This document shows, in pieces, positions 19,157 through 25,732 of a stretch of 64,000 nt of DNA (the stretch's first letter is position 1; the number at the start of each line of letters is the position of its first letter). The stretch lies in the NCBI GenBank assembly GCA_965218435.1, contig CBDCKW010000009.1, positions 1,088,001 to 1,152,000 of the forward strand, in the 5' to 3' direction. A program made the translations under genes and the position numbers. Source of the stretch: Truepera sp. GTDB taxonomy: Bacteria; Deinococcota; Deinococci; Deinococcales; Trueperaceae. The notes below the pieces were generated by a model, which ran no database searches, was not told the DNA's origin, and worked only from the letters and a program-made list of their open reading frames with translations.

Positions 19157-19811
19157 CCTCCCTTAATGGTCATTCTAAACCCAGCGTAGAACGAGCGGTG
19201 TTTTGAAAAGGTGACTTAACCCGCTTCCAGGTAAAATCAGTTGGTTCGGTACACTTATGAGTATGAAGCTGACGCACGCGCCGCCGGGTTACCGAAGTCC
19301 CTTTTTAGATGTCGTGGAAGGACTCGAGCCTCCCACGATATTAGACTTGTTCCCGAATAGACATCAAGTGAGCCAGAGGTTCCATAAACCTGCTGAGACG
19401 ACGAGCACATCGTCTTCAAAGTTGTCTCTATGGTTGCGGTAAGGAGTCGTAAGAATACGAAACCGTTTCATTCCGCCGATAGCGTGCTCGATAAAAACTC
19501 TCAACTTGGCTAAGGCACGGTTGTCTTGCTTCTGTTCGGGGCTAAGGTGCGGGTCAGGCTTCTTTTTGCTTTTGCGCGGTTTCTTGTGGGGAATGCGAAT
19601 ACTGAGACCTTGATAGTCTGTCTGTATCCCTTGATAGCCCAAGTCGAGTAGTACTTCAGTGTCTGCAAACCAAGCCTTTTCCGAAGGAAACTCTGTTTTA
19701 AGCATGGTGTAGTCATGCGTTTTACCCGGGAAAGTCTGACCCAAGAACAAAATGACCTTGTTCGCTGAGGAGAAAACGGTGTTCTTCAAGGTATGGCGCT
19801 TTTTTTACCAC

Positions 19812-19847
19812 GTCTTGGACAAAACGGCACCTCCCGGGCCTGTCCGC
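19812..19847 (+). mobile_element. 36-bp hairpin micro-insertion, copy A
   Basis: GTCTTGGACAAAACGGCACCTCCCGGGCCTGTCCGC interrupts the transposase YSGKK motif. Confidence 0.75.
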
Positions 19848-20031
19848 TATAGTGTTCACGTTGTTTTTCGTCATCACTTGGACGTTGATAGAGACGCTCA
19901 GTTACATCAACTAGCAGATGCTCTAGGTCTACGTTTGCCAGGGTGATTTTAAGTGCTTCGGCATTAGCAAACGTGCGTTCAGGCAAAACTCCCAAGCTTG
20001 CCAAAGTCTTAGACATGATAGGGGTCAGTCT

Positions 20032-20069
20032 GCGGACAGGCCCCTTTCGGGTGCCGTTTTGTCCAAGAC
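20032..20069 (-). mobile_element. 38-bp hairpin micro-insertion, copy B
   Basis: GTCTTGGACAAAACGGCACCCGAAAGGGGCCTGTCCGC on the minus strand; removal restores ENVH-RLTPIMSK. Confidence 0.75.
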
Positions 20070-20819
20070 ATGGACGTTTTCACAAGCTTTTGAACGCGCC
20101 ATATCAAAGTGGGTTCCCAGCACATCAAACGTCGGATAATTCTTGAAGTAGTAAAGCATGAACAACAGCTTTGCCTCGGCACTGGCTAACTTGCCTTTTT
20201 GCCCTCCACCCGACCTACGCTGTTTTAGCCCTTGTACATACGCTTGCTCCTGCTCAGCCTGGTGGATTTTCGCAAACACTTTCGCCAGAACCTTGAACTT
20301 CTCGCTTGATAGACCTGTCAGTGCTTTTAATTGTCGCTCGTCTCGTATCTTCGCTAGCATTTCGCTACTTTAGCAGCTTCTCCTCACTATTAGGGAACTA
20401 CTCTATTGACCCAACAGAGTGACGTTTTTTACCGGGACGCACAGCTGACAGCGTTTATCTCTGCGGCGCGGTGCCAAGCTGTTGGCGGCAACGCGCTCAT
20501 CGTTCCCAATATCCCTTACGAAAATTTCTACGCCATGCCCGACACTCTGCTCGGCACACTACACGCGTTCTCTAAACGCCTCGCGCTGGCGTTTAAGACG
20601 GTCTACGGTTGTGACGGCGTACTTTTACGGCAGCACAACGAACCGGCGGGCAGTCAAGATGTGTGGCACTATCATCTGCACGTCATTCCGCGCTTTACGG
20701 ATGACGAGTTTTACGCTACAAAGCCGCAAAAAGTCTGGACGACCCCGGAAGAGAGAGCTCCTTACGCTCGAGCCCTAAAAAATTACTTTGCCGAGAGCAT
20801 TTAAGCCGTCTAAGTCTTA

Positions 20820-23537: not shown

Positions 23538-25732
23538 CTAGTATCTGATAAACATATCTACACTACCGCTATCGCTACGGTCTGCGACATGGACGTACCA
23601 CTGATAGCTACCCGGTGCTAGATTGCCTGAAGCGAGCTGATAGTACCCGTCCTTCGGAATAATCTTGTATTGAAGATTTTGATACGTGCCGTCAGCTTTT
23701 CGCTTGTTCAAGCCTGCTGCGATAGGCACCTGATTTCCTTGAACAGCCATAAACCTTTGACCTGACGAGCTCAAAGTAAACTCGTAACTTCCCCCCTTGG
23801 TGGGTGTGAGGTTGAATCCACGCCATGTGCAGTTCGGTAATCCGACGCTATTTACACAAGGCGACTGATCACGGTAATAACCGAAAATGCTTGAGGCGTC
23901 TCTACTAGTAAGTCTTTCGCTTTCCCCCATACGGTTTTTGTCAATACCGGAACCCGCTCTAGGTAAAATCGTACATGCTGAGTCAATATTGTTGAATAGG
24001 CAGTCACGTTGGGCCTGTTCGGTCTTACCAAGTGCCCATTTTGGATAGTAGACCTCCGGCGAAAGTCACACAATGGCTTGTAGATCATGGTTGTAGAGAG
24101 CAGCAATGAGATTAAGCCGAAGTCCAAAGCGCCTGCGCCGATGACGATAGGTTTCTTTGAGGATACGCCAGACCTTAAGCTTACGAATGACGTGTTCAGC
24201 GAGGATGCGTTCTTTAGCTAGGATGCGGTTATGTAGCTGTTGCTCTGGGGTAAGTACGTTACCCTTCCAACGTTTATGCGGGGTACGGCTTTTGGGATGA
24301 AGCTTAGCCACGCCCTGAAAGCCGCTATCAGAAAGAAGTTCGGTGTTTGGCGCGAGCACCGTAGCGCAGCGGCTTTGTGTCAATAACTTGAAGTCGTGTG
24401 CTCGGCCTTTGCCATAAGCCGTACATAGGATGCGCTGACTGTTTTGTGCAACAAATACTTGGCTCTTTTGCGTGTGTCGTTTCTTCTTACCCGAGTAGTA
24501 ACGCCGCTACCCTGCCGCTGCGCTTGGGGCACTTTGTTTTTTTGGGACGTTCAACCGGCGACTCGGCAATATCCACTACCACAACTTCTAGCGTCTGGTC
24601 GTCACGCAACGCTTTGCGTCCCGGCAGTGTGAACTTACCCGAGCTGATGAGGGCGTCTTCGACGCGTTCTATGGTGCGCCGCACGGTGCTCTCGTCTACG
24701 CCCCAATCTTCTGACAAGTGAAAGTGGGTTCGGTATTCTCGTAAAAACGATAGGGTCAGTACAAGTTGGTCTTCAAGACACAGCGCGGGAGTTCGTCCGC
24801 GTTTCTTCTTCCGCCCCTCTCTCGCTTTAAGTAACTCCAGCATCGTTCTGAAAGTGGTGGGCTTGACCCCAAGTTTGCGTTTGAACTTCTCAGGTGACAA
24901 CTTTAGACTCCGTGCTGTTTGTTCGCGCATCTTTACATGTTGTCATCTTCGAGCTACTTTCGCCGGAGGTCTAGTGCATAATGGAGTAAGGATCATAAGT
25001 TGAAAGTTGTGCGCCGGTAGAGCAATTCTTGTTTAATTGACCTTTTGGGTCATATGCACGCCCGCCATAGACATTTATGAAGTTGTCCCGGTCGCACCGA
25101 GAGTGTTCGTGATTCAAAGCAACCGCGTGTCCGATCTCGTGGATCGTATTTGCTAAGTCACATCTTGTACCGAGATAGGTATTAACAGTTCCTCCAGAGT
25201 ACCCTACATAAGATGAGCAGTCGGTCTCTTCTGCAGCTCTCTGGAAGACAATACGTGCCCCACAACTGCGCGGATAGAAGCGTAGCATCGTTGCATCTTG
25301 CCAATGCTCAATAGCTGTATTGAGGTTTGCACGCTGTGAAACAGTCAAATTAGTTTCATACGCGTAATAAACTTGACCATGAGGCCAAAACTTATAGTTA
25401 CCTAAAATATCGGTAGCTCCAAACGCTTGGGATGAGAGCGAGCCGTCATTGGCCTTTTCAATTTTAGCTTCTACCTCTTCAACTGGTCCGAGAATCATAT
25501 CACCGCCGATAACTGCTAAACCGTCCACAACTCGGTAAGTGAACGTTTCACCATCTATCTCAGCTGACCTAATCTCCCCTGGTTTGTTGGGAGCATATTC
25601 GCCAATGAATGGTTCTGGGTTTTCGATACTGTTGATTACTAGAGGTGCGTCTGCAGTCTTGCTACAGGCAACTAACGTTAGTATAAACGCGAGACATAAC
25701 AACTTACTTAGCGAGGGGGGTAGATTGCGTAT
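23538..25732 (-). pseudogene. Astacin/M12A zinc metalloprotease lipoprotein split by an IS
   Basis: LVAC lipobox, HEIGHAVALNHEH, SIMH Met-turn; IS removal gives SIMHYYPKW...MGESERL, in frame to 23538. Confidence 0.88.
24051..24971 (-). mobile_element. IS5-family (ISL2/IS702-like) insertion sequence with a two-ORF, -1 frameshift transposase
   Basis: Perfect 16-bp IR GACCTCCGGCGAAAGT, TA duplication at 24049-50 and 24972-73; orfA 24930-24487, orfB with DSGFQG and AEHVIRKLK. Confidence 0.93.

Follow-up and report, generated by a model that had tools for sequence, protein, structure and literature searches.

A 36- to 40-nt mobile hairpin, apparently undescribed, that recurs at transposase codons in Deinococcota

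Two short hairpin inserts interrupt a single transposase gene in the window, the 64,000-nt stretch of Truepera sp. DNA that was analyzed, and they belong to a real and apparently undescribed family among the very small mobile repeats. Members of this family are 36 to 40 nt long and insert as a block, flush with flanking DNA whose last base before the unit is a pyrimidine; their 3′ end is fixed, and their 5′ end often has one extra T. Because they are spread across genomes that include complete isolate replicons, they represent neither an artefact nor a local duplication. The optional 5′ T, the nesting, the tandem arrays, the cargo carried at the hairpin tip, and the repeated use of the same codons in diverged transposases all go beyond what a preliminary description of this DNA had claimed.

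The host of both inserts is an insertion sequence (IS) of IS5-family type on the minus strand (19342–20405; 1064 nt including both inserts), bounded by an imperfect 19-nt terminal inverted repeat at 19342–19360 (plus strand, on the 3′ side of the gene) and its counterpart at 20387–20405 (minus strand, on the 5′ side). The first insert, e1 (19812–19847, plus strand, 36 nt), lies antisense to the transposase gene and in frame, and the second, e2 (20032–20069, minus strand, 38 nt), lies in the sense orientation and shifts the frame after ENVH. The two have the same architecture and agree over 20 nt from the 5′ end and 12 nt from the 3′ end, so that the tip, longer in e2, is their sole difference; the positions and the tip-only difference given in the preliminary description are thus confirmed. 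When up to three mismatches are allowed, the left-arm 17-mer occurs twice in the window against an expectation of 0.21. The host gene falls into three pieces on the minus strand: an N-terminal piece that stops at e2 (20070–20360; HTH_Tnp_4, E 3e-8), a middle piece of 184 nt that separates the inserts (19848–20031), and a C-terminal piece (19364–19811; DDE_Tnp_4, E 3e-16). Skipping both inserts yields one open HTH–DDE reading, through the joints ENVH|RL and HYS|GKK, as far as an A7 run at 19800–19806, where the frame changes, presumably through a programmed −1 shift of the kind known from IS5-family genes. Insert e1 sits inside the Ser codon of HYS|GKK, a site that is also occupied in other IS5 relatives (L145, L165). 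A second IS5-family element in the window (24066–24930; HTH_Tnp_4, DDE_Tnp_4) is hairpin-free; its e1-type site is empty, with a hot-spot Ser codon of the other type and no pyrimidine at the cut.

Exact empty alleles are available for these insertions. In a comparison of the window with contigs assembled from 4 of 14 runs, contigs of runs X5 (one) and X6 (two) skip precisely 20032–20069, and one contig each of X3, X5, and X6 lacks both inserts, joining 19811 to 20070 with 184 letters between; none of the joints listed from these contigs skips e1 alone. Relatives therefore exist that lack exactly 38 or 36 + 38 bases, which upholds the earlier claim that exact removal restores the transposase. 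One X5 contig retains e1 and lacks e2. Since the 36-mer is still present in this contig without the 38-mer, the inserts go back to two events, as had been proposed from the sequence, and e2 was probably inserted later than e1. Further exact empty alleles were found beyond those of the window IS. An identical twin of the host IS, both inserts included and with different flanks, lies elsewhere on the window's contig, at C9:1477898 of its genome (G000), where the closest other transposases to that of the host IS are 30–35% identical. Either the IS moved while frame-shifted (for example, after exact loss of the 38-mer), or the inserts were passed on by gene conversion, or an intact copy was lost.

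Read from the 5′ end, each unit starts with a 5-base tail and a 5-bp stem, continues with a purine-rich 4-base bulge that ends in C and with stems of 3 and 2 bp separated by a bulged A, and is completed by a free tip and the 3′ tail GC. In e1, these parts correspond to the 5-nt 5′ tail at 19812–19816, stem P1 (5 bp) at 19817–19821/19841–19845, the 4-nt bulge at 19822–19825 (likewise purine-rich with C at its end), the 3-bp stem at 19826–19828/19838–19840, the bulged A at 19829, the 2-bp stem, a 4-nt loop at 19832–19835, and the 3′ tail GC. A window copy folded as a single sequence gives only a weak signal (z −1.35 and −2.16 relative to shuffles); it is covariation across the family that settles the fold. 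In a set of 54 of the 65 distinct 35–39-nt units, 98.0% of 540 cells are paired, compared with 84.2% in shuffled data, and the stems contain 75 two-sided changes, compared with 19.1, a value reached by none of 500 shuffles; the shuffle test is inflated by the relatedness of the units, a flaw from which the slide test, with at most nine such changes in slid controls, is free. RNAalifold arrives at the same fold unprompted, so that the bulged stem drawn in the preliminary description is now settled at the level of the family. Stem sequences drift while Watson–Crick pairing is kept, and related 39- and 40-nt subfamilies retain the tail, the first stem, and the bulge. Units that occur with two or more flanks contain a single A–C pair and no G–T pair, which points to a hairpin that acts as DNA, not as RNA.

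The properties of the insertion sites were derived from 191 distinct sites in 100 site families (loci L001–L030 and L108–L339), which remained after a strict filter had dropped 75 of 266 candidate sites. The 3′ end of the insert reads CGC in 95 of the 100 families, and its 5′ tail reads GTCTT in 86 and TTCTT in nine. The base preceding the insert is a pyrimidine in 92 families and in 235 of 239 unit-plus-flank contexts. A flank repeat of at least 2 nt is seen in just 6 of the 100 families, which, together with the exact empty alleles, bears out the proposal of flush insertion without target duplication; the many copies and their exact insertion as a block do the same for the idea of an extremely small, single-hairpin, non-autonomous mobile unit. 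Many inserts carry one additional base at the 5′ end, which is T in every resolved case. At one nested site with a known empty state, this T is absent from nine inserts and present in seven; because the next base is C in all of them, the T there belongs to the unit and does not reflect a duplication, while at sites followed by T a one-base duplication is indistinguishable from the extra T. The suggested CCAY target holds for both window copies, which follow CCAC and CCAT, but not for the family, as CCAY precedes just 5 of 100 site families, or eight after one T is dropped. The target matrix is weak at 2.2 bits, being pyrimidine-rich at −4, −1, and +1, and targets score higher than nearby pyrimidine sites in likeness to the end-to-end junction of the unit itself (4.72 vs. 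3.86 of 12, p 7e-9). A comparison of 100 sites with 300 controls revealed no common target fold or hairpin signature; some hot spots are stem-loops. Units are found in both orientations relative to host genes. Selection for in-frame inserts, with lengths in multiples of three, was considered and rejected, as the apparent pattern was largely due to the numerous 36-nt units and is disrupted by the extra T.

Transposase genes figure prominently among the hosts. By hand tally, 47 of the 100 site families have a transposase Pfam match on the adjacent frame, about seven more are ISs by motif or homology, and the others are mostly intergenic repeats, MITE-like units, or without assignment. In all, 123 of the 191 sites fall into 32 recurrent families, and relatives of the IS630, IS1, IS3, IS5, IS982, and IS6 transposases are hit at recurrent codons. 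In 23 site families there are at least two flank groups under 80% identical, with element ends mostly 85–100% identical and with different size variants sharing a site, although this count is overstated, a few of the families being chimeric pairs or loose clusters. At the IS630 site before NPIE, six groups carry units of 36, 51, 60, and 75 nt, with flanks on average 55% identical and element ends 97%; the IS1 site RQ|RLAR and the IS3 sites HSDQ|G and KKAAA|FF comprise five groups each. These motif names are taken from translations. The flanks at the IS630 site vary at synonymous positions right beside the junction, and this sequence pattern therefore argues for repeated new insertion at hot spots. 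By the target matrix, 59% of the positions nearby score better than the IS630 hot spot. The dominance of transposase genes may partly result from the purging of inserts elsewhere and from copying along with ISs, but these two processes alone do not explain repeated hits at one codon.

Several host loci show individual features. The one clear case in an ordinary gene is a nested 72-nt insert that lies in frame in an oxidoreductase gene (GFO_IDH_MocA; L207:301–372). In IS3 elements at L258, L261, L263, L265, and L267–L269 (about 1501–1538), a 38-mer plus T (39 nt, in frame) is placed ~10 bases after the A-run between orfA and orfB, the position expected of a hairpin that stimulates frameshifting. 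Such carriers may have remained active, which could account for genomes that contain just one or two copies. Single IS6-family copies at L330:9570–10150, L331:3670–4250, and L333:8340–8800 bear as many as four separate insertions, which lie in both orientations. The left and right flanks at L109, L174, L175, and L210 come from different IS sites, indicating either recombination between element copies or misassembly at a 36–60-nt repeat. On metagenome contigs L149, L181, L216, and L223, the element lies in the loop of GTAG-type REP-like hairpins.

Units also nest and form arrays. The tip tolerates 15 to 39 extra bases (cargo of 15, 18, or 24 bases) or whole nested units, carriers of 51 and 60 nt are present at many sites, and genome G188 contains head-to-tail arrays of at least 12 units. 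The array at L324:1500–2053, of at least 12 units with blocks of tip variants and a repeated nested pair, is itself situated inside a MITE-like repeat of which about 24 copies occur on G188:C1. Among the metagenome loci listed, at least 121 in number, none has its own gene between the two arms, apart from an inserted IS110. Long units recognizable by their left arm only had been considered as candidates for an autonomous copy and were rejected as internal deletions (for instance, the 25 nt at C9:216876–216900), 24-nt cargo variants, or units with an IS in the tip. Inverted pairs 1–2 kb apart are separate insertions in ISs and not the two ends of one element, and a role of the tips as guides was likewise dismissed, given that tip sequences never occur alone in G000 and show no correspondence to the target.

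In the window's genome, a covariance model identified at least 13 units under E 0.05 among the 150 of 4319 candidates scored, and pattern searches further uncovered a 75-nt variant and the outer shells of nested units. Matches to the model occur in 6 of 128 genomes of the source family (f1) and in 32 of 151 genomes sampled across the phylum: 31 of 82 in a second family (f2), and 0 of 48 and 0 of 8 in two others. Copy numbers at E ≤0.5 are highest in G260 (60 matches) and G188 (55). A two-arm pattern scan of species genomes returned 91 loci, with 78 of the 80 titled loci assigned to Deinococcus or Deinococcales, and the hairpin-bearing isolate replicons include a complete chromosome and a complete plasmid. 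The metagenome scan returned the at least 121 loci mentioned above, 15 of which we read as chance left-arm matches. One copy, in an IS5 gene at L340:1501–1537, is on a contig titled Flavobacterium that is possibly mis-binned. The viral collection yielded 18 left-arm matches, none with a right arm and all read as chance, and the plasmid collection yielded three partial matches, none covering over 80% of the unit. Rfam returned no match for the window stretch or for four element-rich loci, and the literature searched (outside supplements, SNR and SDR sequence lists, and most subscription papers) contained no description of the family, the two paper matches to its sequence being unrelated and due to a 12-mer. 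The expectation that the inserts might form a mobile family not previously described has thus held up within these searches, and their presence on complete isolate chromosomes and plasmids speaks for a real family and against the adapter or assembly artefact considered earlier.

The orientation of units relative to replication was assessed by taking dnaA as the origin, with which GC skew agrees in G000, and by collapsing the locus lists by hand. The written strand is on the leading-strand template for most loci in two genomes, G188 (19 of 22) and G212 (12 of 14), as compared with 11 of 19, 16 of 29, and 4 of 6 in three further genomes and a reversed, non-significant tendency in G126 (4/14) and G000 (4/11). 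Leaving out G188, where the bias was first noticed, the tally is 51 of 93. Within G188, 12 of 13 filled copies of the MITE follow the bias versus 7 of 11 apparently empty copies, as counted by hand. These counts are at most suggestive of a replication-strand bias of insertion.

We favor, with a probability of roughly 55%, a mechanism in which an enzyme acting in trans nicks and joins single strands at the two feet of the hairpin and inserts the unit, via a small circle or an enzyme-held piece, into junction-like targets. The enzyme would bind the hairpin on single-stranded DNA, nick both feet, and join the two ends to each other, producing a single-strand circle of 36 to 40 nt or a piece held by the enzyme, which would then be joined to a nick in a target loosely like the element's own end-to-end junction. 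A cut placed one base off would give the extra T, and re-use of the element's own 3′ end as a target would give arrays and nesting. The chemistry would be the peel-and-paste of IS608 or REP/RAYT, performed by an unrecognized strand-transfer protein or a host enzyme. This mechanism is consistent with the exact empty alleles, the covariation, the fixed CGC end, the preceding pyrimidine, both orientations, the arrays, the likeness of targets to the element's own junction, the diverged flanks at shared sites, and the strand bias in two genomes. However, no enzyme emerged among the families tested and no intermediate among the assembled contigs compared; the pairing of guide to cut site known from IS608-type elements is not evident at the hairpin foot, and closure of a 36-nt circle across that foot is an assumption. 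Moreover, a ragged 5′ end with a fixed 3′ end also fits target-primed copying, and a 2.2-bit matrix with no common target structure leaves the hot spots without explanation.

Known enzymes were weighed against this reading by profiling 11 high-copy and 20 model-negative f2 genomes plus five of genus g1, a comparison in which draft absences, masked bases, and enzymes gained and then lost all limit what an absence means, and in which related genomes are not independent. Recognition of the bulged hairpin by a Y1 HUH enzyme (TnpA of IS200/IS605, or a RAYT) or by a Y2 enzyme of the IS91 type would fit the size, the bulged stem, the 5′ tail, and the lack of duplication (accessible text of PMC6006769), and TnpA-REP, which according to the accessible part of PMC3333891 cuts either side of one hairpin and recombines, provides a precedent; in addition, G000 has 22 Y1 matches, and in some metagenome loci the element has entered GTAG-type REP-like hairpins. 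We nevertheless consider such a mover unlikely, as neither Y1, Y2, nor RAYT tracks the element and there is no fixed target tetranucleotide. Y1 occurs in 4 of 11 high-copy and 5 of 20 negative genomes, is missing from G188 with its 55 matches, many of them identical, and has 11 matches in the element-negative congener G122; RAYT (NF047646) exceeded the cut-off in none of five genomes tested and was not a neighbor in any of 317 loci; and Y2 was found in 1 of 15 positive genomes. An HUH protein too divergent for these models, or one that passed through and was lost, would escape these profiles. An RNA route, in which a small transcript of the unit would be reverse-transcribed at a nick in the target, is slightly harder to credit: the extra T would then be a non-templated A at the 3′ end of the cDNA and the arrays a product of template jumping, in keeping with the end pattern, with an extra base that is T in every resolved case, and with seven reverse transcriptase matches in G000, but reverse transcriptase was found in only 2 of 11 high-copy genomes (one below cut-off) and not in G125 or G126, multi-site units lack G–U pairs, and neither a 5′-truncation series, nor target duplications, nor an Rfam match accompanies insertion in both orientations. 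Doubtful, too, is a sub-case of the favored nick-and-join mechanism in which a host type IB topoisomerase has been hijacked. Bonding of such an enzyme to the 3′ side of its pyrimidine-rich site, with acceptance of a free 5′-OH, would keep the 3′ end of the unit constant, leave some latitude at the 5′ end, and place most of the motif upstream of the cut, and the matrix is indeed pyrimidine-rich. It is the only tested candidate common to the high-copy genomes, occurring in 14 of 15 positive genomes and absent from G122 and from all eight genomes of two element-free families; within f2, however, it does not discriminate, being present in 20 of 20 negatives, and it has no match in G198 (25 element matches; 180 contigs) or in G011 (87% complete), whose three element matches are all in copies of one IS3. 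In f1 it is found in 39 of 128 genomes (a count that includes G090) and in five of the six positive ones, which come from three genera only and so carry little statistical weight. Type IB topoisomerases act on duplex DNA, which also counts against this candidate. The Deinococcus enzyme is reported, in the accessible part of PMC2666729, to lack a CCCTT preference, and we treat topoisomerase IB as a weak lead, no more.

The remaining alternatives are less probable still. If the hot spots were old single insertions, inherited as the ISs diverged and kept alike by gene conversion, movement could be rare; the window IS with its twin and the three IS3 copies in G011 are plainly inherited, the extra T is constant within several site families, and chimeric flanks suggest recombination between copies. 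We find this very unlikely as a general account because IS630 flanks and element ends differ so widely in identity, with synonymous differences up to the junction, because most inserts shift the frame and their carriers could not have diverged as working genes, because 100 site families require many de novo events, and because at one IS3 site the T is present in some cases and absent in others. It is highly improbable that the hairpin is a miniature derivative of the IS110 family, mobilized by a recombinase with a bridge RNA. IS110 elements do insert without duplication, the family is present in all five g1 genomes, and one IS110 lies inside a micro-element tip, but insert and target have no core bases in common in 60 of 100 families, IS110 ends are unrelated to the hairpin, the family is found in 6 of 11 positive and 5 of 20 negative genomes, and the element is the target of IS110 and not its end. 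The partner sought in the preliminary description among Y1, RAYT, IS91, and IS110 has thus not materialized: none tracks the hairpin across genomes, and none is flanked by it. An adapter or assembly artefact, finally, has next to no probability; many holders are metagenome assemblies and a few flanks are chimeric, but complete isolate replicons, compensatory changes, the lineage-limited spread, and the exact empty alleles rule it out. More broadly, one may imagine a gene-less hyperparasite of ISs, a hairpin of 36–40 nt without its own transposase that would be moved by a host strand-transfer enzyme (topoisomerase IB would fit) and steered to conserved motifs of unrelated transposase genes. We rate this whole picture as unlikely; if true, the hairpin would switch ISs off as it spreads and would deliver small cargo in its tip without leaving a scar.

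Other protein families were screened with similar outcomes. GIY-YIG matches occur in 36 of 36 genomes and are mostly UvrC-sized, and Cas1 is found in 6 of 15 positive versus 14 of 20 negative f2 genomes, so that neither tracks the element; no Ssn-like gene does so, and no recurrent non-IS gene neighbors the element in 317 loci. Four equal-scoring reverse transcriptase frames of 568 aa in G000 (C4:851, C5:298721, C5:561912, and C9:776165) probably belong to a recently spread group II intron.

Among known systems, the closest in behavior are the small dispersed repeats (SDRs) of Nostoc that Elhai et al. reportedly described in 2008 as very small mobile repeats of about 20–27 nt with a conserved fold that insert as a block into other repeats; they are not known to have a mobilizing enzyme. 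Like these SDRs, the hairpin enters other repeats as a very small block without duplication and keeps its fold by compensatory change; unlike them, it measures 36–40 nt and occurs in Deinococcota instead of cyanobacteria, and the repeated hits at transposase codons and the optional 5′ T are not known as features of SDRs. Larger classes agree less well. IS91/ISCR elements use a Y2 transposase and a CTTG/GTTC target, whereas Y2 is present in one of 15 genomes positive for the hairpin and the 2.2-bit matrix shows no target of that type. Group II introns and other retroelements differ as well: group II introns encode a reverse transcriptase, insert in the sense orientation only, and have GUGYG...AY ends, whereas the hairpin is found in both orientations, with reverse transcriptase rare and no Rfam match. 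Unlike in IS110/IS1111 elements, core bases shared by donor junction and target are missing in 60 of 100 site families, and the ends are unrelated.

Several families of small repeats in the literature invite comparison, as far as the accessible parts of the sources go; the Nostoc repeats are themselves referred to in PMC2884548. CGTC-tagged REPs carry a CGTC/TGTC tag, are 20–40 nt long, and have no dedicated transposase found (Di Nocera 2013, PMC3733652); their 8–9-bp stem starts with AT, they have a CCA tail, and they are mostly extragenic head-to-head dimers (PMC3733652). Neisseria dRS3/NTS, with Ssn nucleases, are counted among them (PMC11893778), and PMC3733652 contains no mention of Deinococc-. 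The hairpin is similar in size and has likewise yielded no dedicated transposase. Its foot follows a pyrimidine and GTC in the same 235 of 239 contexts, a possible equivalent of the tag in which the pyrimidine comes from the host in both window copies and from an additional T elsewhere; the hairpin differs in its 5 + 3 + 2-bp stem with two bulges, its GC tail, and its single, nested, or head-to-tail units. GTAG-type REPs and REPINs with RAYT comprise a bulged hairpin with a 5′ tail, form arrays, and have a loop targeted by an IS110-family element (PMC3333891, PMC6006769, PMC3116915). These traits, in a size range of 20–65 nt, are shared, but the hairpin has GTCTT or TTCTT in place of GTAG/GTGG 5′ of its foot, lacks a RAYT, is single and not an inverted doublet, and resides in transposase genes in about half of its site families instead of being extragenic. 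With IS200/IS605 PATEs (PMC6006769), it has in common flush insertion, an end hairpin, and a loose motif common to cut site and target; their fork-tied orientation has at most a possible counterpart in the bias of two genomes, with none or a reversed one in five. Unlike PATEs, which have two subterminal end hairpins, the element has one hairpin with both ends at its foot, no fixed target tetra- or pentanucleotide, and no cognate TnpA, Y1 being absent from 7 of 11 high-copy genomes. The small non-coding mobile repeats (SNRs) of Deinococcus radiodurans, at 60–215 bp (PMC11276467), are longer than the hairpin, and SNR-like repeats host it; we set the two apart by description, and the element may overlap with one of the SNRs.

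How transposase-less repeats of 20–40 bases, such as SDRs and CGTC-REPs, move has been a question for over a decade, and the hairpin makes this question testable because it offers cultured, complete Deinococcus genomes, exact ends, a fold proven by covariation, hot spots, and empty alleles, and because the distribution of the obvious enzymes excludes them. To an IS specialist, repeated insertion at a single codon of diverged transposases would come as a surprise, and it would mean that many "broken" IS genes in these bacteria were broken by one agent. Once its enzyme is known, a 36-nt carrier that accepts cargo and inserts flush, without duplication, might also serve as a tool.

The tip itself attracts further elements. 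At L143:2540–3692, as at L136, the tip of a nested micro-element contains an IS110-family element that has a 5′ non-coding region and is flanked on either side by CT; such tips are therefore targets for this IS110, much as REP loops reportedly serve as targets for IS621. The tip of the 60-mer at L022 resembles an IS605-type end hairpin. Cargo of 24 bases exists in two kinds, placed in the tip or in the first stem, that start with ACC, end with GC, and follow a pyrimidine (L003, L120, and L022; G000:C9:2724520–2724594), and these pieces may represent a still smaller mobile module.
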